A stretch of DNA of 64,000 nucleotides from Escherichia coli (GTDB lineage: Bacteria > Pseudomonadota > Gammaproteobacteria > Enterobacterales > Enterobacteriaceae), in assembly GCF_050920415.1 (NCBI RefSeq), contig NZ_CP169309.1; one strand, written 5' to 3'. Below the pieces are notes generated by a model. The model was not told the origin of the DNA. It made no database searches and worked only from the letters and a program-made list of their open reading frames with translations. Below, piece after piece: positions 12,615 through 28,539 of the stretch (positions are counted from its first letter, which is position 1; every line of letters begins with the position of its first letter). A program made the translations under genes and the position numbers.

Positions 12615-13296
12615 TTATGGATCTGTTGATTGTTTTAACTTACGTGGCGCTGGCATGGGCGGTCTTTAAAATCTTCCGTATTCCGGTGAATCAGTGGACG
12701 CTGGCGACGGCGGCGCTGGGAGGCGTTTTTCTGGTAAGCGGTTTGATTTTGTTGATGAACTACAACCACCCTTACACTTTTACCGCACAGAAAGCGGTGA
12801 TTGCTATTCCCATCACGCCACAGGTGACGGGGATCGTGACTGAAGTCACTGACAAGAATAATCAGCTTATTCAGAAGGGCGAGGTGCTTTTTAAGCTCGA
12901 CCCGGTACGTTATCAGGCGCGAGTCGACAGACTTCAGGCTGACCTGATGACGGCGACGCATAATATAAAGACGCTGCGCGCGCAGCTCACTGAAGCGCAA
13001 GCCAATACCACCCAGGTTTCAGCGGAGCGTGACCGCTTGTTTAAAAATTATCAACGTTACCTGAAAGGCAGCCAGGCGGCGGTAAATCCGTTCTCAGAAC
13101 GTGATATCGACGATGCGCGGCAGAATTTTCTCGCGCAGGATGCGCTGGTGAAAGGTTCGGTGGCGGAACAGGCGCAAATCCAGAGCCAGCTCGACTGTCA
13201 GCGCCAATGATATAAGACAGTAATTCACCATTTGGATTGTCCGCTCCACCCAACATGTTGTTTCCTTAAGGTTCCTACACCACAAAGGGAACACTC

Positions 13297-14343
13297 ATGC
13301 TGAGCAGAGAGGACTTTTACATGATAAAGCAAATGCGCCAGCAAGGTGCGTATATTGTTGATATTGCCACTCAGGTTGGTTGCTCTGAGCGGACTGTCAG
13401 ACGGTACCTGAAATACCCGGAACCTCCGGCCAGAAAAACACGCCACAAAATGGCCAAACTCAAGCCGTTCATGGACTATATCGACATGCGTCTGGCTGAG
13501 AATGTCTGGAACGGCGAGGTCATCCTGGCGGAAATCAAAGCGATGGGTTATACCGGTGGCCGTTCCATGTTGCGTTACTACATCCAGCCCAAACGTAAGA
13601 TGCGGCCATCGAAGAAAACGGTTCGCTTCGAAACTCAGCCCGGTTACCAGCTACAGCATGACTGGGGAGAAGTTGAGGCTGAGGTTGCCGGGCAACGATG
13701 CAGGGTTAACTTCGCGGTTAATACGCTGGGGTTCTCACGTCGCTTCCATGTCTTCGCGGCACCAAAGCAGGATGCTGAACATACCTATGAGTCACTGGTC
13801 CGCGCCTTTCGCTACTTCGGCGGCAGCGTGAAAACCGTGCTGGTCGATAACCAGAAAGCCGCAGTGCTGAAAAATAACAACGGGAAGGTGGTGTTCAACT
13901 CCGGGTTCCTGCTGCTGGCCGATCACTATGGCTTCCTGCCACGGGCCTGCCGTCCACGAAGGGCCAGAACCAAAGGTAAGGTGGAACGGATGGTGAAATA
14001 CCTCAAGGAAAACTTCTTCGTCCGGTACCGCCGGTTCGACAGCTTCGCCCATGTTAATCAGCTACTGGAGCAGTGGATGGCTGACGTTGCCGACAGGCGG
14101 GAACTTCGCCAGTTCAGGCAGACACCGGAACAGCGCTTCACGCAGGAACAGGTGCATCTGCAGGCGCTGCCAGGTACGGACTTCGATACCAGCTACTTCG
14201 ATATCCGTCATGTCTCCTGGGATGGCTATATCGAGGTTGGCGGGAACCGTTACAGCGTGCCGGAAAGCCTGTGTGGCCAGCCGGTATCAATACGGATCTC
14301 GCTGGATGATGAACTGCGATTTACAGTAATGAGCAACAGGTAG
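13297..14343 (+). CDS. istA: IS21-family transposase IstA, apparently frameshifted near its 3' end
   Basis: HTH N-terminus and DDE-like core. The ORF stops at 14343, but another frame continues ...[13 protein letters not shown] to a TGA at 14466-14468 that overlaps the istB ATG, the usual istA/istB junction. Confidence 0.7.
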   Translation: MLSREDFYMIKQMRQQGAYIVDIATQVGCSERTVRRYLKYPEPPARKTRHKMAKLKPFMDYIDMRLAENVWNGEVILAEIKAMGYTGGRSMLRYYIQPKRKMRPSKKTVRFETQPGYQLQHDWGEVEAEVAGQRCRVNFAVNTLGFSRRFHVFAAPKQDAEHTYESLVRAFRYFGGSVKTVLVDNQKAAVLKNNNGKVVFNSGFLLLADHYGFLPRACRPRRARTKGKVERMVKYLKENFFVRYRRFDSFAHVNQLLEQWMADVADRRELRQFRQTPEQRFTQEQVHLQALPGTDFDTSYFDIRHVSWDGYIEVGGNRYSVPESLCGQPVSIRISLDDELRFTVMSNR

Positions 14344-14455
14344 CATCGCACCGTCTCTGTTCGGCTGTATACGGCTGGCAGACCGTGCCGGAGCATCACG
14401 CCCCACTCTGGCAGCAGGTCAGTCAGGTGGAACACAGGCCGTTGAGTGCCTATGA

Positions 14456-15262
<807 letters not shown>

Positions 15263-15884
15263 TGACCAATAGCGGACATTAAAAATGGCGAAAAACGGCC
15301 AATAATCTTGGCGTTGACACGACAGTATGGTTAACGGTGAGCAGTCGCAGATTGTCAGCTTAAGGGCGCAGCTTACCGAAGCGAAATATAACCTTGAGCA
15401 GACCGTCATTCGCGCGCCGAGCAATGGCTACGTTACTCAGGTACTGATCCGCCCAGGTACATACGCAGCTGCCTTGCCGCTACGTCCGGTGATGGTTTTC
15501 ATCCCCGAGCAAAAACGGCAAATTGTCGCCCAATTTCGGCAGAACTCGCTGTTACGTCTGAAACCCGGCGATGATGCGGAAGTAGTGTTTAACGCGCTAC
15601 CTGGGCAGGTGTTCCACGGCAAACTGACTAGTATTTTACCTGTCGTGCCAGGTGGTTCGTATCAGGCGCAGGGGGTACTGCAATCATTAACCGTCGTACC
15701 CGGCACGGACGGTGTGCTGGGAACCATCGAACTGGACCCTAACGCTGATATCGATGCTTTACCCGACGGCATCTACGCCCAGGTGGCAGTTTACTCCGAC
15801 CATTTCAGCCATGTTTCGGTGATGCGGAAGGTGCTGCTAAGAATGACCAGTTGGATGCATTATCTTTATTTGGATCATTGAGGG

Positions 15885-16450
15885 GGGCGGGGGAGATTAT
15901 GGAACTTTGCTCCTTGTAAGGACTAATTATTTTTGCATATTACTTCATTGGCTGCGATGATTTTTCTTTAATATTCATTAGGTTGAGAAGTTCTTGATGA
16001 GTGTGCTCTCATTGGATTTTTTATCCGTCTTGTTCTGCCGCAGGATCAGACTATACATCGTCGAGATCGCAATGATTATGAATTGTTCCTCTGCGACGAT
16101 GCTAATCAAAAAAGTGCTGGAGTGCTTTTCCATCTATTGCGATGATGGTTTTATTATCTGAAGAATGACAGTCACACATCCAGCTAATAAAGAACTCGTG
16201 AAATTTTCCAGGACTGATACAGGACACAACTCTGGTAATGATATCGTGAATAGGAATACCATATTAAAAATCACCATATTGCTTCAACAAATCGAGATGA
16301 GTCTCACCAGAATCCTCTATATCTTCCCATCCTTCAGCTCCGGAAATGATGGCGAAAATAATCAGCACTAGGATATCTGATAATTTATACTCTACTTTCC
16401 AGACTTGTCTGTAATCGGGACAGTAGAAATATGCTCCATTAATTTTTTAA
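15885..16450 (-). pseudogene. Degenerate H-repeat (ISAs1-family) transposase remnant
   Basis: Minus-strand translation gives [11 protein letters not shown]..., then after stops and frameshifts ...AIDGKALQ...RRRGTIH...ELLNLMNIKEK, matching H-rpt transposase motifs as I recall them. Confidence 0.5.
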
Positions 16451-16915
16451 GTTCCATTTTTTCTCCTTGTTTATGTAAGGAGTGTCTGAATATATATAAG
16501 CTATGAAAACACTTATTAAATAATAAGGGATATCTTGATTATTGGACATTTAGTGCTAATTGTTTAGTGCAAAAAATCGGCGTTATATGGTCTTTACCTT
16601 TATTACCCTTGCTGTTTTCCTCCAGCCTATGAAAAGCCAGCTTCAGTAAATCGTACCGCCCGAACATTGTAAGATACAATTTACTGACAACTTAGTACAT
16701 TATTAATATCACATTTAAGCTTTTTTTTCAGATTATAAAGCCTGTCCACTTTATAATCTTTGCAATTATAAACGTATTCTTTTTTTGTTTTCATATCAAT
16801 GACACTAACCCCTCGCATGTTACTACCGTTGTCGTAATTGCTAAACACGGAGTACTTATATCCACTTTGAATAAAACTAACGCTAAAGTAATCCGTTTGA
16901 AATCTGGAGTAATGA

Positions 16916-17128
16916 TTATAAAAAATCCTGAATACATTGGTCCATCTGAAATGAATTGAAATTTATCCCATGCTGACTATTCATTTCATAAATCAACGTT
17001 TCACCAAAACTTGTTAATGACAAAGTTCCTTTGGATGTATTACATAAAAAATAATTATTTCCTGCGTTTAGAGTCCAGGGAATTCCAGATAAAAAAATAA
17101 AAATTAATGCTCTATCTATATTGCTCAT
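16916..17128 (-). CDS. Hypothetical small protein downstream of the orphan toxin fragment; possible immunity-gene remnant
   Basis: 70-aa ORF whose start overlaps the end of the orphan toxin ORF; AT-rich; no recognisable motif. Confidence 0.25.
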   Translation of the reverse strand: MSNIDRALIFIFLSGIPWTLNAGNNYFLCNTSKGTLSLTSFGETLIYEMNSQHGINFNSFQMDQCIQDFL

Positions 17129-18290
17129 AATTAGCCCTTATTCTGTCATCATATCCTCGCTGACTTTGCCCATTATAACATAGAGCAAAGTTAAGCCAAT
17201 CTTTATCTCTAATAGCACGCAATAATACAGGATTAGATTTTATGAAGTTAATGAATGCCGCCAGATGGTTTTTCTCTGACTCTGAAATCGATATTATAAA
17301 CTCTTCGGGCGAAGAGTACCCGGCAGCTTGGTAATTTGAAGCCAATATCTGAAATTTACCCCACGATGCCGATTTAAGCGCAGCTTGCTTATCTAAAACA
17401 TATGCACGAAGTAATTTTTGATATTGCTCCGATCGTGTTCCATAACCGCCAGAACGGCTGTTGGAAATATCAGGTTGAGAATCATACACACCATTCGTAT
17501 ATCGATGGAAATGATGTCTTTCAAAAAGAATTGAGGGGACGTAATCATCTTCTTGTTCAAATTTAAAATAGCTACCGGAACTACCAGTTTCAGTTTTTGC
17601 AACAGCTTTAATTGCAGCCACTTCGCATTGTAGTGTCCTTGCAGCATTTTCATAGTCTGCATCATCAATGGTATCTCCGTTATAAAATCGTAAAAATTCC
17701 AATGGAATAAGTTCATTATTTACAGGAGTTTTTGGGTAATTGCTATTATTAATAGCATTCAAAAACACAACCGGATGAAAATGCCACACAGCATCATCAC
17801 TATTAAACGGAGACACCCCGCTCATCCACTCCAGATCCAGCTGCCACTTTTCACAGTATGCCACTTCCTCGGGTCCAGATCTTTATAAAACCCTTCCCAG
17901 CGTCCCGTCGAGCGACCGCCGTACCACTCGCTGTGGTGTCTGACTGTCAGACGATTCACCACATTTCTCACCAGTGGTTCACGCACGGTCAGCGCCTGTC
18001 TGATCTCTTCCTCCGTCACTTTTCCATCACCGTCCTGATCCATACCCGCCATCAGCTCACGATAAAAGGGCGGTACCTGCTCATACAGCCACTCATCTCC
18101 CTGTTCTGCGGCACGGCTTATTGAGTCAAACGCTTCCGGCACCCATCCTTCGTACGGGCTGTACGTCATGTCACCGCTGCTGTTCTCCTCCAGCGGCTGA
18201 AAACCCAGCTTCAGTAAATCATACTGTCCGGCCTCTTCAACATCCTTCTGTGGCAGCCAGCCGGTTCCGGTGATATTAAGCCGCCTCTGG
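17112..18290 (-). pseudogene. Orphan 3' fragment of a VgrG-linked effector paralogue: EF-hand linker plus an alternative C-terminal muramidase-like domain, frameshifted near 17860
   Basis: ORFs 17822-18391 and 17112-17864 are collinear with residues about 383-556 of the 829-aa effector at 19290-21779 (NITGTGWLPQKDVEEAGQ...DQDGDGKVTEEE...AYCEKWQLDLEWMSGVSPFNSDDAVWHFHPVVFL), then diverge into a different C-terminal domain (...FERHHFHRYT...SWGKFQILASNY...). Confidence 0.55.
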
Positions 18291-18572
18291 TTTCCTTTTA
18301 ATAAAGCACTCGTGAAATTTTGCAGGACTGATACAGGATACAACTCTGGCAATGGTATCGTGAACAGGAATACCATTATCAAAATCACCATATTGCTTCA
18401 AAAAATCGAGATGTGTTTCCCCAAAATCCTCTATATCTTCCCAGCCTTCTGCACCCGAAATAACGGCACAAATAGTCAACAGTAGAATATCCGATAATTT
18501 ATGTTGCACTTTCCAGGCTTGTCTGTAATCGGGGATAATAGAAATATGTCCCATCAATTTTTTAAGTTCCAT
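18276..18572 (-). pseudogene. H-repeat (ISAs1-family) transposase N-terminal fragment, about 90 codons, fused to the orphan toxin fragment
   Basis: [60 protein letters not shown]... matches the N-terminus of H-rpt transposases; a second copy with its upstream sequence is repeated at about 16150-16600. Confidence 0.6.
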
Positions 18573-18873
18573 TTTGTTCTCCTTAATTATGTAAGGAGTA
18601 TTTGATCATGTATAAGCAATAAAAAACAGCTTTAGGTAATGAGGAATATCTCAATTTTCAAACATAAAATGCGAATTGTCTAGTACAAAAAAGCAGCGTT
18701 ACGTGATCTTTCCCTGCCTGCCTGTACGATATCCCTCAAAAATAATTTTCCAGTCAGTTATTCATGTCTAACTTAAAATCATAAAACATTTAAATTAATA
18801 ATAAACAAATTCAACCTAGTCGCATTATTATTTTAATAACACAGCATCGATTTCATAAAAAACTGCACAATGG

Positions 18874-19284
18874 TCATCCAGTCCATTTGCAATCAGTACC
18901 ATCATCATTATATGCCTCAATATTTTCTTCAAACTCAGTTGTTTTCCCACTTATTGATTTATAATGAAACAAATTAAATCTTGCACCTTGTGTGGAAACA
19001 ACATACAACCCATTAATTTTTCCATTTACAACCTCGCTCCATGCATAAGAAAATTCAGAAGGCCTGTCATCGAAAGTCACTTCTAATTTATTTATAAACG
19101 CAAGAGGTATAAATTTTGAGGATTTCTCATAAATCACATAACCTAAAAAAATATCGCCAGACGATATTTCAACAAACTTTAAATTTGTTTTCCCAGCGCT
19201 AAAACAGCCTACCGTTGTTTGTTGTTTAGCCAATAAACAACAAGGCACCAAACAAAACAGTAAAACCAATAAGTTAACTTTCAT
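18874..19284 (-). CDS. Small secreted protein, putative immunity protein for the effector at 19290-21779
   Basis: N-terminal Sec-type signal peptide MKVNLLVLLFCLVPCCLLA; GGAG ribosome-binding site; starts 5 bp after the effector stop; AT-rich. Confidence 0.5.
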   Translation of the reverse strand: MKVNLLVLLFCLVPCCLLAKQQTTVGCFSAGKTNLKFVEISSGDIFLGYVIYEKSSKFIPLAFINKLEVTFDDRPSEFSYAWSEVVNGKINGLYVVSTQGARFNLFHYKSISGKTTEFEENIEAYNDDGTDCKWTG

Positions 19285-19289
19285 ATCAA

Positions 19290-21779
19290 TTACTCCAGTT
19301 CAGTTATTCGTCTCTCTACAAATGTGGATATATTCCTTTTTTCTATTCCATATACTTTTCTATCACCCTCACGCCCTTCCTGAGGAAACGGATGCAGGTC
19401 AATTAATTCTTTCGCCCTTCTATAACCTTTTAATGCTTCTTCGTTACTCTTGATCGTCCCTCTTCGGGAGCTATCAGGATCATGCCATATCCCCCATCCC
19501 AAAGCATATACTTTATTATCATATACGTCACTATCATCAAACAAGAAATCGTCGTTCATTGCTTTCTGATTTAAATGCTCGGCAGCAAGTGAGGTAACCA
19601 ATTTATTAAATATCGACAACCGTTCATCATAATGATTATACCCTCCATTAATCACTGCTGTAATTTTATTAAAATCATCATTTTTAGCATCTTCATTTAT
19701 TCTTTTGAATATATTGAAATACCAAAACGCAGATAATACGCAATGTGGGGAGGATATAAGTTTATCTCTTGCGGAATCTGAAGATGTTACGTCCTCATTG
19801 ATATATTCCCCATAGGCGGTGTAATTACTTTCCCCTGTAACTTGTATTAAGCCTCGGCCATACCACGGACTATATGAAGCTGATTCACCATTAATTTCTT
19901 TGGTATATCTAAAATAACCGCTCTCGTGAATAATTTGAGCAAGAAAATGGGCTTTTTCTCTACAAGTGGTCATACCAAACCGAATAAACCCTGCATTTAT
20001 ATCGTAGAGGTACCTTTTGAGAAGACCTTCACTTACTGCAGGAGCAACTTTTTTTAATTCATCTAATGTTATATCTCTGTTGCAAGCACACACAGATTTG
20101 GAATTAATAGCGTCCAAAAACACAACCGGATGAAAATGCCACACAGCATCATCACTATTAAACGGAGATACCCCGCTCATCCACTCCAGATCCAGCTGCC
20201 ACTTCTCACAGTATGCCACTTCCTCTGTGTCCAGATCTTTATAAAATCCTTCCCACCGCCCTGTCGAGCGCCCTCCGTACCATTCGCTGTGGTGTTTAAC
20301 TATCAGATGATTCACCACATTTCTCACCAGTGGTTCACGCACGGTCAGCGCCTGTCTGATCTCTTCCTCCGTCACTTTTCCATCACCGTCCTGATCCATA
20401 CCCGCCATCAGCTCACGATAAAAGGGCGGTACCTGCTCATACAGCCACTCATCTCCCTGTTCTGCGGCACGGCTTATTGAGTCAAACGCTTCCGGCACCC
20501 ATCCTTCGTACGGGCTGTACGTCATGTCACCGCTGCTGTTCTCCTCCAGCGGTTGAAAACCCAGCTTCAGTAAATCATACTGTCCGGCCTCTTCAACATC
20601 CTTTTGTGGCAGCCAGCCGGTTCCGGTGATATTAAACCACCACTGCTGCGATTCATCCGTGATCGGTGTCGTGGCTTCCCGCGGAAGAACGCGCTGAGCA
20701 CCCAGTGTGGCTGCGGTTGCGGTAAATACCTCCTGTCCCGGAACGGCCTGCCGGGTGTATAAAATTATCCCTTTTGGTGCCAGAACAGTCCGTTTTTCTC
20801 CCTTAACGCCTGCCGGGTTGGATAAGAACTTTGGCATATTCGGGTCTGTACTCAGAACCTCCAGATGGACGAACCACTCGCGCTCAATCTCACCGCTTCC
20901 CTCGCCAGGATAATCCTCGCATCCCATAAATCCGACCGGTGTTCCGGCACTGACTTTCCACTCTTCCGTTTCGTCGACCGTCTGTACCGAGTCAAAAATG
21001 CCTTTTGCCTTCGCCTTCTGCATCCACTCAGGCATCAGCATCTGTATTTCGCCATCTGACTCCATCAGATCCGGATCCAGGGTCACCCAGTACTGCTCAT
21101 TCCCCGGTTTATTGCCTTCCAGCAGGCGAACCAGTCCGAATGTCGTCAGGACCGGCTGGCCGTTATTGGTCACGTAAAAACGTCCGGTCCGGGATGACAC
21201 AAACCGATCTCCCGCATTAAGTGTCCTGTTTCCGCTGATTTTCGGGGGTATCCAGTACGTGGCATGATCTCCGCTTTCCTGCCCCTCGGGAAGGCCGTTC
21301 TTTCCCGGGATGTATCGGTGCAGCAATATGCCACCATGCCCGGTTTTAACTTTATAGCAGGGGGAGCCGGGATAATCGTTCACCGGGGCCAGATGCATAT
21401 AGAGACAGTAAAATTCCAGCCAGCTTTCTTTTTTTTGCGGGTCTGGCTGGCACTGCGATTTCACCAGAACAAATGTGCTGCTGTAACGGAGTTGCTGCCC
21501 TTTGTAGGTGCCTTTCAGGTAATCATTATTTATCCGGTACGCCGCAATGGTGCCATCGGCCATAAACTGAAGAGGAACCGGTTCTCCGGTAGCGGCGGTA
21601 TCCGGTTTCAGGGCTGATAACGGATTAGACACGTCACTGATATGTATCCCGCCGTGCCACAGCCCGTTTCCACCCAGCAGCCAGGTTCCGTGCGCTTCTT
21701 TGTCAATAAGCCGCATTATCTCATCCAGCGAGCGAAACTCTTTGCCTTCTTTATCCCTGATGGGATGGCTGATTTTCAT
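19290..21779 (-). CDS. VgrG-linked multidomain putative T6SS effector (829 aa): N-terminal M23-like region, EF-hand loop, C-terminal GH19-like glycoside hydrolase
   Basis: Starts 9 bp after the vgrG stop. WHGGIHI, LYMHL and GTPVGFMG...FVHLEV resemble M23 (lysostaphin/LytM) motifs; DQDGDGKVTEEE is a canonical 12-residue EF-hand loop; AHFLAQIIHESG...YGRGLIQVTGESNY resembles GH19 signatures. No signal peptide. Confidence 0.6.
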   Translation of the reverse strand: MKISHPIRDKEGKEFRSLDEIMRLIDKEAHGTWLLGGNGLWHGGIHISDVSNPLSALKPDTAATGEPVPLQFMADGTIAAYRINNDYLKGTYKGQQLRYSSTFVLVKSQCQPDPQKKESWLEFYCLYMHLAPVNDYPGSPCYKVKTGHGGILLHRYIPGKNGLPEGQESGDHATYWIPPKISGNRTLNAGDRFVSSRTGRFYVTNNGQPVLTTFGLVRLLEGNKPGNEQYWVTLDPDLMESDGEIQMLMPEWMQKAKAKGIFDSVQTVDETEEWKVSAGTPVGFMGCEDYPGEGSGEIEREWFVHLEVLSTDPNMPKFLSNPAGVKGEKRTVLAPKGIILYTRQAVPGQEVFTATAATLGAQRVLPREATTPITDESQQWWFNITGTGWLPQKDVEEAGQYDLLKLGFQPLEENSSGDMTYSPYEGWVPEAFDSISRAAEQGDEWLYEQVPPFYRELMAGMDQDGDGKVTEEEIRQALTVREPLVRNVVNHLIVKHHSEWYGGRSTGRWEGFYKDLDTEEVAYCEKWQLDLEWMSGVSPFNSDDAVWHFHPVVFLDAINSKSVCACNRDITLDELKKVAPAVSEGLLKRYLYDINAGFIRFGMTTCREKAHFLAQIIHESGYFRYTKEINGESASYSPWYGRGLIQVTGESNYTAYGEYINEDVTSSDSARDKLISSPHCVLSAFWYFNIFKRINEDAKNDDFNKITAVINGGYNHYDERLSIFNKLVTSLAAEHLNQKAMNDDFLFDDSDVYDNKVYALGWGIWHDPDSSRRGTIKSNEEALKGYRRAKELIDLHPFPQEGREGDRKVYGIEKRNISTFVERRITELE

Positions 21780-21788
21780 GTTCAGTCC

Positions 21789-23990
21789 TTATCGTGAGAA
21801 TCTTCCCGGCCGTTGTGGCGGTACCTTATCCTGCTGGGGAGGATCAAAGGCTTCCTGTACATTTTTCCGTGGTGGCTCCGCCCCTTCAGTTCCAGGTCCG
21901 CCATTGTCATAATCTGCCAGCGCTTTCAAAACCGCCGGTCGTAGTGTCGGCACCGGCGTTCCCGGACTACCGCCGCTATTGAGATTGATTTTCGGCCCGA
22001 CGATGTCCACGCCCCCTGAATGGATGACCACAAACGAACCACCCACCTTCAGGGTGATTTTACCGCCACTCTCCAGTACGATTTCATCCCGGACCTTCAT
22101 TCCCAGCGCACCGGTAATCTTCCTCGCCAGGTCGCCCTTCACCTCCAGACTGTGCGTTCCCTCCACCAGACTGATATGGTTCCCCGTCGTCTTATGCTCC
22201 TGCTTCCCTTCCACCGTCACTTTACGGTCGTTTCTGACATACAGGCCGTCATCGTGACTCACGCTCACCGTCCGGTCATTCGTCACCTTCAGCGTCTGGT
22301 CATTACGTACCGTTATGCGCCGGTCGTTCGCCACCGTGATACTCTGGTCGTGGCCCCCTTCTTTTCTGGTGCCGACCTCAACCGTCTGCCCCTTCACCAC
22401 CCTTATCTTCTGGTCGTTACCGATGGTCTCCGTATGGTCATGCTTCACGTCCGTCGTCCGGTCGTTAAGCACCTCCGTGTCCATGTTCTTCTGCGCGTGG
22501 ATATACACCTGCTCACTGTCCGTCGCATCCTCGAAACGCAGTTCATTAAAGCCGCTTCCTTTATAGGTCTTCGAGCGGATGGTCATCTGCGTCCGCGTGC
22601 CCGGTAAATCCCCCGGTGAACGGTTATCTTCATGGTAGGTCCGCCCCGTCACAATGGGCTGGTCCGGGTCGCCGTTCAGAAAGTCCACTATCACTTCCTG
22701 ACCCACACGCGGTATCGCCAGATTGCCGAACCCCGGTCCCGCCCATGCCTGCGACACCCGTATCCAGCATGAACTCTCCTCCGTCATCCCGTGATAACGG
22801 TCCCAGTGAAACTTCACCCGTACCCGGCCATGCTCGTCGCAGAATATCTCCTCGCCCTTCGGCCCGGTCACGATGGCACTCTGCGGGCCGTCCACCTTCG
22901 GCTTCGGCAGGGGCTGTGAGCGCCAGGTCCGGTCTGCCGGGATGACCGTGATATGGTTACTCAGTGTCGTTCCCCTCCCCTGGCTCCCGTGCAGCGCCTG
23001 CGGCTGGCTCCCCGTCAGCGTGCTGCTCACCACCTGCCACTCACGGTTCGGGTTCGCTCCCTGTACCGGATGCCCCGTCAGGGTGAACCGCCGTCCCGGC
23101 CACAGCGCCGGGGAGTTACTGATACCTGTGGCGGTTTCAGCACTGTTACGCAGCCCTTCCAGCCGGTAGCGGGTAAAGTCCTGACCATGCTGCTCGTCCT
23201 TGTAGCGCCCCGGCCAGTCCAGGATTTTGTACTGCTTCAGTTGCTCGTTGAGGTTTTCAGCATCCTCAATGTAAATACCCGGCCAGTCCGGCACCTTAAA
23301 CGTGTGGTCTTTTGAACGCACCTGCGAGGGCCGCACCTGCGCCTGGTAGCGGAACAGGCTGATGCACGCCGTCGTCACCTCACGGGTGTTCGGGTTAAAC
23401 GGTATCTCCCCGTACACCGGCAGGCCCGCCACATCATCGCACAGCGTGAGCGTCTGCTCCGGGCTGTCGTCAGCGTATCTGTCATAAAAGAAGATGCCTT
23501 CCTCCGCCCACAGCCGGGTCAGAAACGCCAGGTCGCTTTCACCGTACTGGACGCAGAACTCCCGTGCCGGGTGGCTCTCATAAAAGCGCGGCGTCCACTG
23601 CGTCACTCCGTCCTCGTTTAACAGCGTGGCGGAGATGGCCTGAATGTCCTGCTGCTGGAAGATTCGGTAGTTCTGCCGCAGCCCGCTGCGCCACAGGGGC
23701 GGGCGTATCTGAAGGTGGTACTGCATCTGCCAGCCGTTGTGCTCCTTCATGCCTAACCCCGACACCACACCGCTCACATAACGCAGCGCCGTGCCACCCT
23801 GCCAGATGGTCAGCACGGCCCCCTTCTCCAGCAGCTTCTCCGCCGTCTGGCGGAACGAGTCGCTGGCAACGTCCACATCCAGGACGAACGGCGATGAGTA
23901 TGCCTGCGTGAGGCGGAAATCCACCACCGCGAACGTCTCCGGCACCAGTCCGTCCACCGTCAGCGTAAAACGCAGCCCTTTTAATGACAT
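21789..23990 (-). CDS. vgrG: Type VI secretion spike protein VgrG (733 aa)
   Basis: MSLKGLRFTLTVDGL... N-terminus, gp27/gp5-like core with beta-helix repeats (VRNDQTLKVTNDRTVSVSHDD...), GGAGG-type RBS. Confidence 0.9.
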   Translation of the reverse strand: MSLKGLRFTLTVDGLVPETFAVVDFRLTQAYSSPFVLDVDVASDSFRQTAEKLLEKGAVLTIWQGGTALRYVSGVVSGLGMKEHNGWQMQYHLQIRPPLWRSGLRQNYRIFQQQDIQAISATLLNEDGVTQWTPRFYESHPAREFCVQYGESDLAFLTRLWAEEGIFFYDRYADDSPEQTLTLCDDVAGLPVYGEIPFNPNTREVTTACISLFRYQAQVRPSQVRSKDHTFKVPDWPGIYIEDAENLNEQLKQYKILDWPGRYKDEQHGQDFTRYRLEGLRNSAETATGISNSPALWPGRRFTLTGHPVQGANPNREWQVVSSTLTGSQPQALHGSQGRGTTLSNHITVIPADRTWRSQPLPKPKVDGPQSAIVTGPKGEEIFCDEHGRVRVKFHWDRYHGMTEESSCWIRVSQAWAGPGFGNLAIPRVGQEVIVDFLNGDPDQPIVTGRTYHEDNRSPGDLPGTRTQMTIRSKTYKGSGFNELRFEDATDSEQVYIHAQKNMDTEVLNDRTTDVKHDHTETIGNDQKIRVVKGQTVEVGTRKEGGHDQSITVANDRRITVRNDQTLKVTNDRTVSVSHDDGLYVRNDRKVTVEGKQEHKTTGNHISLVEGTHSLEVKGDLARKITGALGMKVRDEIVLESGGKITLKVGGSFVVIHSGGVDIVGPKINLNSGGSPGTPVPTLRPAVLKALADYDNGGPGTEGAEPPRKNVQEAFDPPQQDKVPPQRPGRFSR

Positions 23991-24145
23991 GATGACCTCC
24001 CTGGTATTGCTACAGGAAAAAGTAATTAACCGATATTGACCGTACCTTCTGATATTCTCTCACTGATTCATTATCTGTATTTCCCATGAACATTCTCATT
24101 TCAACAGGAAAACCAACGAATTGTAGCCATGACAATAAGTTAACA

Positions 24146-25060
24146 TTAATAATTCCTCAACGAATAAGGAGGAGATGCCCTGTCCCCATCAATAGTAACC
24201 ACGACCTGATTTGATCTTATTTTGAATATATTATCATTACCGCCATGATAGCCAAATCGTGCTAAAAAATCCTGAAATAGACCAGGTCCTCTATAAGGTC
24301 CACAGATTCTCCAAACCCGCCACTCCTCTATGCCATACGTTATTTTATCTATAGGATTAGTACACTCTCTTTCTGCCCGCCAGTTCATAATAGAAAGAAA
24401 ATACTCATATATATATTGTTCTGCAAACCACTCTTGATTAACTATTGTAAATTCTACCGTCCCTATATTATAACGATGAATGCCCGGTAAAAAGGCATAA
24501 TAATCGTTCAATGTGACATCAAAGGATAGCTCTTTCCCTGGTAATATCTCGCGCCAAACAGATTTACTTTTCCATTCACCAAAGCTACATTTTGTTTTTT
24601 TTAAAAAATCCAACTGAATGTTATCCATTATCGGTATAAACACACCACTACACAAGGAAGAGTAAGGCCCGCCGTTAACGTCAAGAGGAAGAGTTAGTCG
24701 ATGAACAAAATAAGATCCCTGGCTTTTATTCGATAAAACCACTGCAGCTGCTACAATATTTTCTTTCTGATGCACGGAAAGATGAAGATATATTTTATTT
24801 TTATCCTGATTATACTGACTCTCATTTTTACTGATAGTATAATATTGAAAAACAGCATAGGCTGAAAGATCATCATAATAATCATAATAATTAAGCCTTG
24901 TCGGTTCTACACGAGGATAGACACCAAGTTTTTCCATTACTCCATTCCAATGTAACTTCCCATATCTGTAATGAACCGCATAATCGCCAGAGATATCATA
25001 AGCAAATATTGGATGCACCCAAGAAAAAAAAGCAATAAAAACAATCCATCTAGCAAGCAT
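24146..25060 (-). CDS. Secreted protein with Sec signal peptide, putative immunity protein for the HExxH effector
   Basis: Start placed at the ATG at 25058-25060 (strong GGGGGAG RBS), giving MLARWIVFIAFFSWVHPIFA as signal peptide; 25 bp after the effector stop. Confidence 0.5.
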   Translation of the reverse strand: MLARWIVFIAFFSWVHPIFAYDISGDYAVHYRYGKLHWNGVMEKLGVYPRVEPTRLNYYDYYDDLSAYAVFQYYTISKNESQYNQDKNKIYLHLSVHQKENIVAAAVVLSNKSQGSYFVHRLTLPLDVNGGPYSSLCSGVFIPIMDNIQLDFLKKTKCSFGEWKSKSVWREILPGKELSFDVTLNDYYAFLPGIHRYNIGTVEFTIVNQEWFAEQYIYEYFLSIMNWRAERECTNPIDKITYGIEEWRVWRICGPYRGPGLFQDFLARFGYHGGNDNIFKIRSNQVVVTIDGDRASPPYSLRNY

Positions 25061-25084
25061 ATACTCCCCCGTCAAATAAAAGCA

Positions 25085-25930
25085 TCAATATGGTACAGGA
25101 ATCTCGAAATAACGTTCGATATTATATGCATTCTGAAACAGTTCTGATTTTTTATCATTTTTTAATTTAGTGGCATGAGCAATATATTCGTCACCTGTAC
25201 TATACTCTATATCTACCGGCATATCTTCCGTCCACATGCCTCCAAACTTAAGTGAATCCCCGTACCTTATAAAGTGAGATAGTTCATGGCAGAGTGTCGA
25301 TGCCTTAGAGTTTTCCCCAGTGAATGGCCTATCTATAAATCTTTGTCCTATAGTTATACTTACCAAACTTTTAAAGCTTCCAGATTTTACACCCAAAATC
25401 TGATCGTAAGTTACATTGGCAGCATAAGCGTCATTATCTGTACAATTCACAAAGTTACCAATTTTGGGCCTGATTACGTCTTTGTCAACATATTCATTAC
25501 CCCCTTTGTCATTAAGAACAAGATTACAATTGGCATCACGTTTGAGGAAATGGTCATGAACGGTAACGTCTACACAATCACCTTCCACAGATAATTCCCC
25601 ACATATCTCATACAGGCGAGTAACGCCATTTCTCATATAATCCCTTGCCTTTATATTCTCTGTAAACAGAGTATTACGCCCCCCGAAAGGGAACTTTAAT
25701 TTAATATAAGTATTTCCATCAATGCCAAATATATTTATAAATTCCTGATTTTGTTCCGCCCCCCATTTATCACCAAGATCTTCTACTCTTTTTTTCAATA
25801 CAGCCATCTGCGCCTTCAGAGCCTCTCTCATCATTATTTTAAAATCATTAGTAATTTTCCCCTCCTTTAAAACTACACACTGTTCACCACTCTGGCTTTT
25901 TCCGCTCGTACTACCCTTTTCATCTCCCAT
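25085..25930 (-). CDS. VgrG-linked putative zinc-metallopeptidase-like effector (281 aa, HExxH)
   Basis: CHELSHF (HExxH) at residues 215-219, with a possible downstream Asp ligand in STGDEY; hydrophilic N-terminus with no signal peptide; AAGGAGGA RBS; 81 bp after the vgrG stop. Confidence 0.5.
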   Translation of the reverse strand: MGDEKGSTSGKSQSGEQCVVLKEGKITNDFKIMMREALKAQMAVLKKRVEDLGDKWGAEQNQEFINIFGIDGNTYIKLKFPFGGRNTLFTENIKARDYMRNGVTRLYEICGELSVEGDCVDVTVHDHFLKRDANCNLVLNDKGGNEYVDKDVIRPKIGNFVNCTDNDAYAANVTYDQILGVKSGSFKSLVSITIGQRFIDRPFTGENSKASTLCHELSHFIRYGDSLKFGGMWTEDMPVDIEYSTGDEYIAHATKLKNDKKSELFQNAYNIERYFEIPVPY

Positions 25931-26011
25931 ATAAATCCTCCTTGGTATATATTTTCACTACAAACCCTGTTCCATTTATGCAAAAACACGCCAATTACAG
26001 GCGGTCACTCT

Positions 26012-28324
26012 CTATTCATTAATCCCTCCCCATATCATATCGATATTCAAATGCAACAATCTGACGTCTATTGTCTGCTCGCTGTCAGTGGTGAATATTT
26101 CCGTATACCCATCCTTATCCGTTTCTCCGCGGGTCTGCGTGCCGTCCTCAAAGAAGGCAATGTAGCGTGTCTCTGAATACGGTATCCCGTCATCGTCTGT
26201 AAAATGGAACTGGAGAGTATATTTTTCAGGGTTCTCATCATCATTCTCATCCTCCAGCGCCTCCAGTACAACCGGTTGCAGCGTCGATACTGGCGTCCCC
26301 GGACCTCCCCCACCATTCAGGTTTATCTTCGGCCCCACTATATCCACGCCGCCAGAGTGTATCACCACGAACGAACCGCCCGCTTTCAGGCTTATCTGGC
26401 TGCTGCTCTCCAGCACGATATCCCCGTCCACCTTTATCCCCAGCGCGCCACTCACCTTCTCCGCCAGGTCACCCTTCACCTCCAGGCTGTGTTTCCCCTC
26501 CACCAGGCTGATATGGTTTCCCGTCGTCTTATGCTCCTGCTTCCCTTCCACCGTCACTTTACGGTCGTTTCTGACATACAGGCCGTCATCGTGACTCACG
26601 CTCACCGTCCGGTCATTCGTCACCTTCAGCGTCTGGTCATTACGTACCGTTATGCGCCGGTCGTTCGCCACCGTGATACTCTGGTCGTGACCCCCTTCTT
26701 TTCTGGTGCCGACCTCAACCGTCTGCCCCTTCACCACCCTTATCTTCTGGTCGTTACCGATGGTCTCCGTATGGTCATGCTTCACGTCCGTCGTCCGGTC
26801 GTTAAGCACCTCCGTGTCCATGTTCTTCTGCGCGTGGATATACACCTGCTCACTGTCCGTCGCATCCTCGAAACGCAGTTCATTAAAGCCGCTTCCTTTA
26901 TAGGTCTTCGAGCGGATGGTCATCTGCGTCCGCGTGCCCGGTAAATCCCCCGGTGAACGGTTATCTTCATGGTAGGTCCGCCCCGTCACAATGGGCTGGT
27001 CCGGGTCGCCGTTCAGAAAGTCCACTATCACTTCCTGACCCACACGCGGTATCGCCAGATTGCCGAACCCCGGTCCCGCCCATGCCTGCGACACCCGTAT
27101 CCAGCATGAACTCTCCTCCGTCATCCCGTGATAACGGTCCCAGTGAAACTTCACCCGTACCCGGCCATGCTCGTCGCAGAATATCTCCTCACCCTTCGGC
27201 CCGGTCACGATGGCACTCTGCGGGCCGTCCACCTTCGGCTTCGGCAGCGGCGCGTGACGCCACGTCCTGTCTGCCGGTATCACCTCAAACTGATTGCTCA
27301 GTGTCGTCCCTTCACCGTGACTCCCGTGCAGCGCCTGCGGCTGTTCTCCCCGCAGTGTGCTTCCCACAACCTGCCATTCCCGGTTCAGCGTCGCTGACGG
27401 ATGGCCCGTCAGCCGGAACCGCGTTCCCGGCCACAGCCGCGCCGTGTTACACACCCCGCTCGCCGTCTCCGCCCCGTTCCGCCACCCTTCCGTCTGGTAA
27501 CGCGCAAAATCCTGGCCATGCTGCTCATCCTTGAAACGCCCCGGATAATCAAATATCTCGTACTGCGTTCCCTGTCCGTTCAGGCTCTCCCCGTCATGGC
27601 TGTAGTACCCCGGCCACCCCGGCGTTTTGAACGTATAATCCTGCGTCTCCACCGACGCCACGCTTATCTGCGCACGGTAACGGAAGTCGCGGATGTACTC
27701 TGTCGTGCCTCCGGTCGTGGTATTCGGGTTAAACGCCAGCGCCCCCATTCCCGTCAGCCCCGCCACGTCATCACACACCGCCAGCTTCTGTTCCGGCCCG
27801 TCCTGACTGCAGCGTTCATAAAAGAAGATACCTTCCTCCGCCCACAGCCGGGTCAGGAATGTCAGGTCGCTCTCCCCGTACTGCACGCAGAACTCCCGCG
27901 CCGGGTGCGCCTCATAGAACAGCGGCATCCACGCCGTCACCCCGTTCTCTTCAAGAAGCTGCGCTGATATCGTCTGAATGTCCTGCTGCTGGAAGATACG
28001 GAAGTTCTGCCGTAACCCTGCCCGCCACAGCGGCGGGCTGATGCTCAGGGAATAACGCATCTGCCAGTCGTTGTTCTCACCGAGCTGCACCTCTGTCACG
28101 ATACCGCTGACGTAACGCTGTGCAGTGTCGCCCTGCCAGACCGTCAGCACCGCGCTTTTCTCCAGAAAATCTTCTGCCGTCAGGTCAGACAGTCCGCTGG
28201 CGATATCCACATCCAGGATGAACGGTGTGCAGTGGTGCTGGTACAGACGGAAGCTCACCACCGCCGTCGCCATCTCCACAATACCGTCCACCGACAGCGT
28301 GAAACGTAATCCTTCTGCTGCCAT
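26012..28324 (-). CDS. vgrG: Type VI secretion spike protein VgrG with a divergent acidic C-terminal extension (about 770 aa)
   Basis: Start set at MAAEGLRFTLSVDG (ATG at 28322-28324); core nearly identical to the vgrG at 21789-23990; C-terminal 100 aa (...EDENDDENPEKYTLQFHFTDDDGIPYSE...) is unique. Confidence 0.9.
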   Translation of the reverse strand: MAAEGLRFTLSVDGIVEMATAVVSFRLYQHHCTPFILDVDIASGLSDLTAEDFLEKSAVLTVWQGDTAQRYVSGIVTEVQLGENNDWQMRYSLSISPPLWRAGLRQNFRIFQQQDIQTISAQLLEENGVTAWMPLFYEAHPAREFCVQYGESDLTFLTRLWAEEGIFFYERCSQDGPEQKLAVCDDVAGLTGMGALAFNPNTTTGGTTEYIRDFRYRAQISVASVETQDYTFKTPGWPGYYSHDGESLNGQGTQYEIFDYPGRFKDEQHGQDFARYQTEGWRNGAETASGVCNTARLWPGTRFRLTGHPSATLNREWQVVGSTLRGEQPQALHGSHGEGTTLSNQFEVIPADRTWRHAPLPKPKVDGPQSAIVTGPKGEEIFCDEHGRVRVKFHWDRYHGMTEESSCWIRVSQAWAGPGFGNLAIPRVGQEVIVDFLNGDPDQPIVTGRTYHEDNRSPGDLPGTRTQMTIRSKTYKGSGFNELRFEDATDSEQVYIHAQKNMDTEVLNDRTTDVKHDHTETIGNDQKIRVVKGQTVEVGTRKEGGHDQSITVANDRRITVRNDQTLKVTNDRTVSVSHDDGLYVRNDRKVTVEGKQEHKTTGNHISLVEGKHSLEVKGDLAEKVSGALGIKVDGDIVLESSSQISLKAGGSFVVIHSGGVDIVGPKINLNGGGGPGTPVSTLQPVVLEALEDENDDENPEKYTLQFHFTDDDGIPYSETRYIAFFEDGTQTRGETDKDGYTEIFTTDSEQTIDVRLLHLNIDMIWGGINE

Positions 28325-28539
28325 ATAAACCCCATAGCTACCGCACTCATAGTGCAAACCATACGGGCTTATAAGAAAGGCTTAAGTGAGATATCTGCCA
28401 GATAGCAACTATTAGGAAAATATTTATATCACCATGATAAATATGTGATTTATTGGGAGATAACAAACCATCAACATTTTCTGCCCTTTTTCCCATCACC
28501 AGGCCATACTGATATTTTTCCTCGCACAAAGGACTCGGC

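Follow-up and report, generated by a model that had tools for sequence, protein, structure and literature searches.

This study concerns a 64,000-nucleotide stretch of an Escherichia coli genome (contig NZ_CP169309.1; "the window" throughout) and, within it, an orphan 3' fragment of a type VI secretion system (T6SS) effector gene that lies between two remnants of the insertion sequence (IS) ISAs1, also known as the H-repeat or H-rpt. On the minus strand, the features follow one another in the order vgrG, full-length effector gene, immunity gene 1 (imm1), ISAs1 copy 2 fragment and orphan effector fragment. Further 3' come immunity gene 2 (imm2), a 58-nt remnant of a WHIX-class effector gene, the degraded ISAs1 copy 1 and yibH (Table 1). 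This island between yibF and yibH is the RhsA hotspot. In most E. coli it is occupied by rhsA and orphan modules, whereas the source strain carries two tandem vgrG modules there. The 64-kb window holds these two vgrG genes and none of the core T6SS genes.

An intact WHIX effector and an orphan fragment

The vgrG gene at the head of the module is identical to a gene with Phage_GPD, Phage_base_V and Gp5_trimer_C matches on record in Pfam. The 829-aa effector encoded directly downstream of it contains a WHxxxH motif, W41-H-G-G-I-H46. Pfam detected in this protein only an EF-hand loop (residues 455-479) and a weak GH19 match, and since neither Pfam nor NCBIfam returned anything further, we placed the family through the literature. 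WHIX is a bipartite T6SS secretion domain with WHxxxH in its first region, and it caps the C-terminus of VgrG (Fridman et al. 2025, PLoS Biol, PMC12135965). Because the motif occupies residues 41-46 and the protein's RefSeq accession (WP_000703217.1) appears in the tree and C-terminus files of that study's dataset, the intact gene, judged by its sequence, encodes a subclass-I WHIX effector that has been catalogued before and has a chitinase-like C-terminus. Its GH19/endolysin-like domain spans approximately residues 605-732 and matches PDB endolysins (best E value 1.7e-13). As in the WHIX effectors described in PMC12135965, the N-terminal WHxxxH is accompanied by a chitinase- or GH19-like C-terminus that is predicted to target peptidoglycan, a vgrG directly upstream and a downstream immunity protein with a leader, here Imm1. 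The imm1 gene lies directly 3' of the effector in all 14 related loci with the GH19 module and is absent from locus L004, discussed below. It is probably cognate to the GH19-like toxin, and Pfam, NCBIfam and PDB searches with its product gave no family match. A spacer of 157 nt separates imm1 from ISAs1 copy 2.

The orphan aligns with the intact gene over 543 nt (18289-17748 against 20645-20103) at 96% identity, with 21 mismatches and one 1-nt gap. The original prediction had the fragment begin at the equivalent of residue 383 or so, which is where the alignment places the motif NITGTGW; weaker homology extends about 5 codons further upstream (CAG AGG CGG CTT versus CAG TGG TGG TTT). The shared block ends abruptly at residue ~560, where two unrelated C-termini start. 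The junction aside, differences are unevenly distributed: they fall at columns 42 and 93, are absent from the next 245 nt, and number 16 in the last 205 nt. Lacking residues 1-377, the orphan has neither the WHxxxH region nor a start of its own. Unlike WHIX effectors, which are recognized by at least 70% coverage of the domain including region 1, it is without region 1 and part of region 2 and keeps about 180 of the roughly 560 WHIX residues. On this alignment, the fragment is a derivative of a WHIX gene and is not itself a WHIX effector.

The C-terminus of the orphan carries a different toxin domain. A hidden Markov model search matched it to PF11860 (Muramidase) with an E value of 6.5e-46 over model positions 1-174 of 175, which substantiates its earlier, tentative assignment to N-acetylmuramidase-type lysozymes, and the PDB endolysins 7q4s, 5nm7 and 7rum match as well. 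Glu92 of the 250-aa open reading frame (ORF), within the sequence KTETG, aligns with the catalytic Glu101 of AP3gp15, in which mutation of Glu101 to Ala causes a 99.4% loss of activity. The muramidase domain is also 68-69% identical to the C-terminus of some Vibrio cholerae-type VgrG proteins (VgrG + PF11860 + PG_binding_1). This type of toxin domain is thus used by specialized VgrG effectors and WHIX cargo effectors alike.

A 1-nt deletion splits the orphan into two ORFs, 18391-17822 and 17864-17112, which RefSeq annotates as "EF-hand domain-containing protein" and "N-acetylmuramidase family protein". These products present an annotation problem, being halves of one frameshifted orphan. The same deletion occurs in 13 independent assemblies, ruling out a sequencing error, and is absent from strain RMDEC465. 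Programmed frameshifting is likewise ruled out by the undeleted RMDEC465 copy, the lack of a slippery run and the accumulation of lesions across strains. In a further related locus, L014, the intact GH19 effector (825 aa) lacks alignment columns 419-430, a loss of 12 nt that preserves the frame. This adjoins column 418, the site of the orphan's deletion, and may reflect a local deletion hotspot or coincidence.

The two effector copies are direct repeats in one orientation, as would be expected from a tandem duplication at the locus with later divergence, or from an artifact of sequencing or assembly. However, their C-termini (GH19-like versus PF11860) and their immunity genes are unrelated, which rules out tandem duplication. 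The junction is formed by an ISAs1 fragment, and the 13 independent assemblies, complete genomes among them, all show this structure and its 1-nt deletion. We give duplication or artifact next to no chance. In both modules, the toxin and immunity parts have a GC content of 0.31-0.38, down from ~0.53 across the WHIX block that the two share, which we read as the usual signature of imported C-terminal cassettes.

Downstream of the orphan toxin, imm2 is a pseudogene in the source strain. It is intact in RMDEC465 (L002), N96 (L003), L007 and L008, where it encodes 149 aa with a hydrophobic leader and a predicted secreted product. Pfam, NCBIfam and PDB searches with Imm2 gave no family match. We rejected a relationship to V. 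cholerae TsiV3, as the PDB sequence search returned a single chance-level match, to an antibody chain. Homologues with 48-49% identity (E values 1e-47 and 8e-45) lie directly 3' of muramidase toxins at two other loci. One of these, L016, encodes a full-length WHIX-muramidase in which WHGGIH is present and which is split into 119 and 680 aa in its assembly; the other, L017, is the main T6SS cluster of Lelliottia amnigena. Because the toxin-immunity pairing is conserved at both loci, imm2 is probably cognate to the muramidase, which supports the view that the orphan muramidase and imm2 form a cognate toxin-immunity pair. A promoter-like site at 17199-17172(-) (TTGGCT-16-TATAAT, extended -10 TG) falls within the muramidase ORF at its 3' end and precedes the start of imm2 by 44 nt. 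It is only a consensus match that may mark an internal immunity promoter.

Two directly oriented H-rpt 5' ends with their upstream sequence had been predicted to flank the orphan, and both are there. Positions 16185-16599 and 18299-18715 form a direct repeat of three in-register blocks with 72-89% identity, and a 98-aa ORF in copy 2 (18572-18276(-)) matches NCBIfam NF033564 transpos_ISAs1 (E value 1.9e-22; 79.9 bits against a cutoff of 70). For copy 1, the repeat stood but its proposed extent of about 16150-16600 was too short; it runs from 16599 to 15953 and is 80.6% identical to the full ISAs1 of RMDEC465 over 654 nt. Neither copy is a complete ISAs1, with a DDE transposase and both ends: copy 2 comprises 418 nt and copy 1 about 650 nt. 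The left repeat of copy 2, CAGGGAAAGATCACG, pairs with the right repeat in the full ISAs1 of RMDEC465. Copy 2 is 98.1% identical to the 5' part of that full element (copy A), which follows imm1 in RMDEC465, and 90.9% identical to a second ISAs1 fragment (copy B), which is fused to the orphan in the same strain. The transposase frame stops at a TAA that overlaps the first codons of the effector, whose own frame lies one base out of register; the ISAs1-effector fusion is therefore out of frame, as anticipated.

Between imm2 and copy 1, the effector remnant described earlier as 40 bp long is present but measures 58 nt. It is 83% identical to both larger effector copies (BLAST: 53 nt, 84.9%, E value 4e-11). 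Beyond it, 15882-16176 (295 nt at yibH, including the distal part of copy 1) is approximately 93.6% conserved in 3,729 of 5,426 complete E. coli genomes. In EDL933, the same 295-nt yibH-side segment borders an Imm57 pseudogene, an Rhs core fragment, yibG and rhsA. Similarity to rhsA-type islands such as that of EDL933 ends within the ISAs1 remnant, which places the island boundary inside the IS scar. At the other side of the orphan, several related loci have mobile elements inserted within the first 10 nt of the copy-2 left end: a group II intron in L005, L009 and L013, and an IS3-family element in L006 and L014. With secondary elements there in several strains, the imm1-ISAs1 spacer is a recurrent insertion target. 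An Rfam search of 15000-24500 returned zero matches, and a promoter and terminator scan of the region found no enrichment over shuffled sequences.

Table 1. Coordinates of the features in and around the orphan module (window positions).
Feature	Position	Strand	Description or basis
yibH, 3' part	15327..15881	+	Right-hand island border; stop codon at 15881
ISAs1 (H-rpt) copy 1	15953..16599	-	Degraded (frameshifts, stops), 3'-truncated; RefSeq pseudogene
WHIX remnant, 58 nt	16605..16662	-	Older gene, codons ~401-420; cut by left end of ISAs1 copy 1
Immunity gene 2 (imm2), pseudogene in source strain	16681..17128	-	Two 1-nt deletions
Orphan C-terminal toxin domain, PF11860 N-acetylmuramidase	17112..17747	-	Pfam
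1-nt deletion frameshifting the orphan toxin	17872..17873	-	Alignment column 418
Orphan WHIX 3' portion	17748..18289	-	Equivalent to residues ~378-560 of the intact effector; EF-hand loop kept
Junction/filler, ~8 nt	18290..18297	-	Between truncated ISAs1 and effector fragment; three-way alignment
ISAs1 (H-rpt) copy 2	18298..18716	-	Left inverted repeat CAGGGAAAG... and first 418 nt; cut inside transposase gene
Immunity gene 1 (imm1), 136 aa	18874..19284	-	ORF; hydrophobic N-terminal leader
WHIX-class cargo effector, intact, 829 aa	19290..21779	-	ORF; WHIX dataset listing
VgrG/TssI spike gene, module head	21789..23990	-	733-aa ORF; RefSeq tssI

Decay of the module across related loci

The orphan lies co-oriented downstream of a full-length toxin gene and imm1, lacks the N-terminal delivery region, keeps a conserved stretch ahead of a variable C-terminus, and pairs a different toxin domain with an immunity gene of its own. 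We therefore favor, with a probability of roughly 0.85, the reading that it is an orphan toxin-immunity module of a WHIX-class T6SS effector, left behind by C-terminal displacement and now decaying. This agrees with the original prediction of a stack of displaced toxin C-termini like those at Rhs and contact-dependent growth inhibition (CDI) loci, given the module's own imm2, the rhsA site and the two ISAs1 remnants.

We arranged the window and 14 related loci (L001-L014) by their lesions. RMDEC465 (L002) has none, with a 413-aa open orphan ORF and an intact imm2. The toxin deletion alone is present in N96 (L003), L007 and L008, and N96 has an additional IS66 within the toxin domain. One imm2 deletion is added to the toxin deletion in L004, two are added in the window and eight loci (L001, L006 and L009-L014), and five in L005. 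The nesting of these lesions indicates that the toxin was probably lost first and the immunity gene later. Such an order of decay is what would be expected of a displaced module that has no delivery route.

A comparison with other E. coli had been proposed as a way to find intact versions of the locus. The orphan ORF and imm2 are both intact in RMDEC465, but no full-length WHIX-muramidase was found among the 5,426 complete E. coli genomes. At the level of megablast, the effector family is present in three of these genomes, all of which have the orphan. A wider collection has 77 contigs with the GH19 effector and 83 with the muramidase ORF in its commonest form, of 237 aa, cryptic Escherichia clades being among the carriers. 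One candidate for an intact WHIX-muramidase, P0133 (L022), has the full N-terminus, orphan-type single-nucleotide polymorphisms (SNPs) and no frameshift, yet we rejected it, as the gene breaks off at both ends on a 1.9-kb contig and the sequence beyond both breaks is unrelated.

The persistence of intact imm2 genes bears on a second explanation, that the immunity gene is retained for protection against neighbors armed with muramidase-bearing WHIX or VgrG effectors while the toxin is a passenger. The toxin was inactivated before imm2, and among the four loci with an intact 149-aa imm2 (L002, L003, L007 and L008), the latter three keep it beside a frameshifted or IS-disrupted toxin. The promoter-like site just upstream of imm2 would suit such retention, as would the orphan immunity arrays known from Vibrio and Pantoea T6SS islands. 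However, imm2 is itself frameshifted in the window and nine further loci, and promoter-like sites are not enriched in the region (15 observed versus 12.7 +/- 3.3 expected). We consider selection for immunity alone quite unlikely.

A third explanation starts from the reading frames that remain. Muramidase ORFs of 250 aa and 237 aa are still open, an orphan Rhs acting as a toxin-antitoxin-like module has a precedent in Salmonella (PMC7043789), and transcription from the ISAs1 transposase promoter might extend into the fragment. On these grounds, the orphan toxin could work with its immunity gene inside the producer, in the manner of a toxin-antitoxin pair, or the two could use another export route. 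Against this, the muramidase ORF has neither a signal peptide nor a secretion domain, a peptidoglycan hydrolase is harmless in the cytoplasm, no credible ribosome-binding spacing precedes the GTG start, and frameshifts and IS insertions pile up across strains. A stand-alone module is very improbable.

Origin of the arrangement

RMDEC465 retains more of the history of the locus. Between imm1 and the orphan, it has a cassette (L002, 11504-15851) consisting of ISAs1-A, a vgrG fragment, an S-type pyocin-domain protein and a bacteriocin immunity protein. After the pyocin immunity gene, the ISAs1 5' fragment (copy B) is fused to the orphan at the same junction as in the window, and the orphans of the two strains are 99.4% identical. 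ISAs1-A is full-length with an internal stop. It has both inverted repeats and lies between unrelated flanks, namely the 3' flank of imm1 and mid-vgrG sequence, and no target duplication was seen around it. Such flanks are, as far as sequence can tell, the mark of recombination between IS copies and not of simple insertion. In a three-way alignment, the ISAs1 of the window has the sequence of copy A as far as ~14 nt short of the junction, from where it has that of copy B; A-type sequence is likewise found in all 12 further loci with an orphan that were compared (L001, L003 and L005-L014). The vgrG fragment of the cassette is 95.8% identical to 22947-21913 of the window, and one 504-aa frame spans the C-terminal part of vgrG and continues into the pyocin-domain protein.

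From the anatomy, homologies, domain identities, WHIX listing, synteny and decay series described above, we infer an order and mechanism of rearrangement. The ancestor would have been a WHIX effector with a PF11860 muramidase domain and an immunity gene, placed behind vgrG at yibF-yibH. Newer VgrG-effector-immunity cassettes, each ending in ISAs1, would have been added on the vgrG side. In the process, the resident gene would have lost residues 1-377 (the WHxxxH half, which docks on the VgrG tail), its start codon and its promoter. A truncated ISAs1 would have become joined, in a different reading frame, to what was left: the last ~180 codons of WHIX and, behind them, the toxin domain and the immunity gene. 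On the simplest reading, an RMDEC465-like intermediate then lost the vgrG'-pyocin-immunity cassette through recombination of two co-oriented ISAs1 copies. Without selection on the toxin, the 1-nt toxin deletion would have come first, followed by one imm2 deletion and later a second. The 58-nt remnant stops precisely where copy 1 has its left end, which suggests that an earlier WHIX gene was hit by ISAs1 and afterwards mostly lost. The locus would thus be a push-down stack whose layers, from oldest to newest, are the WHIX remnant, WHIX'-muramidase-imm2, vgrG'-pyocin-immunity (RMDEC465 only) and vgrG-WHIX-GH19-imm1. An ISAs1 left end in the same orientation is found at every module junction.

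Several points weigh against displacement and decay. The non-functional status of the module is read from frameshifts, and the 237- or 250-aa muramidase ORF and a 189-aa WHIX' ORF are still open and could be expressed. The step between RMDEC465 and the window may have been an insertion rather than a deletion, and the switch from A-type to B-type sequence occurs within an unusually short ~14 nt. Finally, an intact WHIX-PF11860 gene was not found in E. coli, and the proposed ancestor is modeled on the 50%-identical, assembly-split L016.

The original prediction went further and suggested that the displaced C-termini may be a reservoir for toxin-domain swapping. If so, the orphan would be kept for RecA-dependent recombination between the 543-nt WHIX blocks, which would re-arm the main gene with the muramidase and delete the GH19 toxin, imm1 and the ISAs1 fragment. 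Experiments on Salmonella Rhs orphans offer a precedent. Structurally such a swap is possible, as the blocks are direct repeats 2,356 bp apart with 96% identity and a 245-nt identical stretch, and both orphan ORFs are still intact in RMDEC465. Additionally, L004 (GCA_039787015.1, contig ABSKRV010000042.1, 574-2885; 17 kb) has exactly the predicted structure: its SNPs match the intact gene at columns 42 and 93 and the orphan from column 338 on, the 1-nt deletion included. L004 carries this orphan-lineage deletion and one imm2 deletion, both of which postdate the ISAs1 junction, ruling it out as an undisplaced ancestor.

L004 may have arisen from a toxin swap in nature, in which the frameshift was transferred as well, or it may be a chimera created during assembly. 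An assembly path error across the 245-nt identical stretch would yield the same SNP pattern, and the 533-aa product (P0029) is on record from this one 17-kb draft contig only. No recombinant appeared among the complete genomes checked, namely three RefSeq chromosomes and the megabase-scale records of L005-L014. In the source strain, the reservoir idea does not hold up: with the toxin frameshifted and two deletions in imm2, most crossovers would give a pseudogene, and crossovers that stay in frame, which would be rare and confined to the last 123 nt, would produce a toxin unmatched by a functional immunity protein, so that a swap would end in a dead or self-toxic product. We regard a live reservoir as unlikely in general. 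In the source strain, judging by its reading frames, the module is a relic and not a usable reservoir.

A broader idea concerns the ISAs1 copies themselves, which, far from being bystanders of cassette turnover, could serve as portable homology arms for the capture, deletion and resurrection of vgrG-effector-immunity cassettes at T6SS and Rhs hotspots. WHIX-GH19, VgrG-linked S-type pyocin, WHIX-muramidase and Rhs cassettes, whose effectors belong to unrelated classes, would all, on this reading, end in co-oriented ISAs1. It is hinted at by the same-orientation left ends at all three junctions, the flanks of ISAs1-A and the A/B hybrid copy, and further by the island border inside the ISAs1 remnant (3,729 genomes) and the presence of ISAs1 in WHIX genes at two further positions, one of them the rhsC site. 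We put the idea forward tentatively, as one with which the evidence is consistent without demonstrating it. H-rpt/ISAs1 elements accompany Rhs loci in K-12, and homology arms of this kind, if real, would account for the long-noted association between H-repeats and Rhs.

Relation to known systems

The arrangement resembles the Rhs-CT and CdiA-CT orphans (Poole et al. 2011, PMC3150448) in being a 5'-truncated fragment, co-oriented and downstream of a full-length polymorphic toxin gene, that keeps a conserved stretch ahead of a different toxin domain and an immunity gene of its own. Also shared are the AT-rich C-terminal toxin parts and the site, yibF-yibH being the home of rhsA and its orphans. 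It differs from them in three respects. The conserved part is the C-terminal third of a WHIX domain rather than an Rhs/YD shell or CdiA filament, the toxins are predicted periplasm-acting peptidoglycan hydrolases rather than nucleases or other cytoplasmic toxins, and the junction is with a truncated IS instead of directly after the preceding immunity gene. The serial addition of cassettes is familiar from T6SS auxiliary clusters of V. cholerae (Kirchberger 2017) and from hcp/vgrG/paar islands of Pantoea (PMC9796082). As in those Vibrio and Pantoea arrays, older immunity genes and effector 3' remnants are retained downstream; unlike them, the locus described here keeps a whole toxin domain and has IS fragments at each junction. 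The window copies share an N-terminal transposase segment, left inverted repeat and upstream leader with the ISAs1 family (H-repeat ISEc1 and ISEc5 of E. coli). Unlike intact elements, both are dead fragments of a ~1.3 kb element with no right end, and they can contribute homology or scars at most.

Displacement as such was already known from Rhs, CdiA and T6SS islands, as was the WHIX family. PMC12135965 describes single-blade and double-blade full-length WHIX effectors and lists 163 proteins as "no domain/truncated". The sections of that paper that we examined do not describe displaced WHIX-CT and immunity modules or a link to ISAs1, and the three occurrences of "orphan" in them all refer to a non-WHIX Aeromonas effector. 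To our knowledge, displaced WHIX-CT-immunity modules, the retained last third of WHIX and the ISAs1 scars are new to the WHIX literature we found. With them, the turnover of displaced C-termini and immunity genes known from Rhs and CdiA is seen to include VgrG-loaded cargo effectors of the recently defined WHIX class, in which the retained recombination substrate is the last ~180 residues of WHIX and not a domain boundary. The lesion-dated strain series offers a way to study for how long an orphaned immunity gene remains useful, and RMDEC465, with its intact parts, is a strain in which the swap idea could be tested.

Truncated WHIX genes also occur outside this locus. In the Lelliottia T6SS cluster (L017, 6001-7861), an intact VgrG, a 766-aa pesticin-domain effector and an LprI gene precede a 5'-truncated WHIX'-muramidase and a downstream ORF 49% identical to imm2, without ISAs1. 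Providencia stuartii (L025/L026) has a 5'-truncated WHIX'-muramidase with a 151-aa ORF downstream of it, next to PAAR and Tle1-like genes and again without ISAs1. These two cases show that this type of toxin is also orphaned outside E. coli and in the absence of ISAs1. In other Escherichia (L019-L021, 9001-10951), the rhsC site (kdpA...ybgA-phr) has WHIX fragments that lie downstream of a vgrG-DUF4123-PAAR module and are truncated at codon ~445 by an ISAs1 left end. A further locus at the rhsC site, L018, has a WHIX C-terminus with M23 peptidase and phage lysozyme domains and a 203-aa downstream gene.

The surroundings of the module vary among strains as well. In the source strain, the border gene yibH is a pseudogene, split by an IS21-family element at ~13200-15320 (istA, with istB annotated as frameshifted; ISEc62 in RefSeq), and the copies in RMDEC465 and N96 are intact. 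On the other side, 24146-28357 of the window holds the second vgrG (26012-28357), followed by two hypothetical ORFs of 281 and 309 aa. N96 has a single M35-family metalloendopeptidase gene in the slot of these two ORFs, showing that this cargo slot is also polymorphic.

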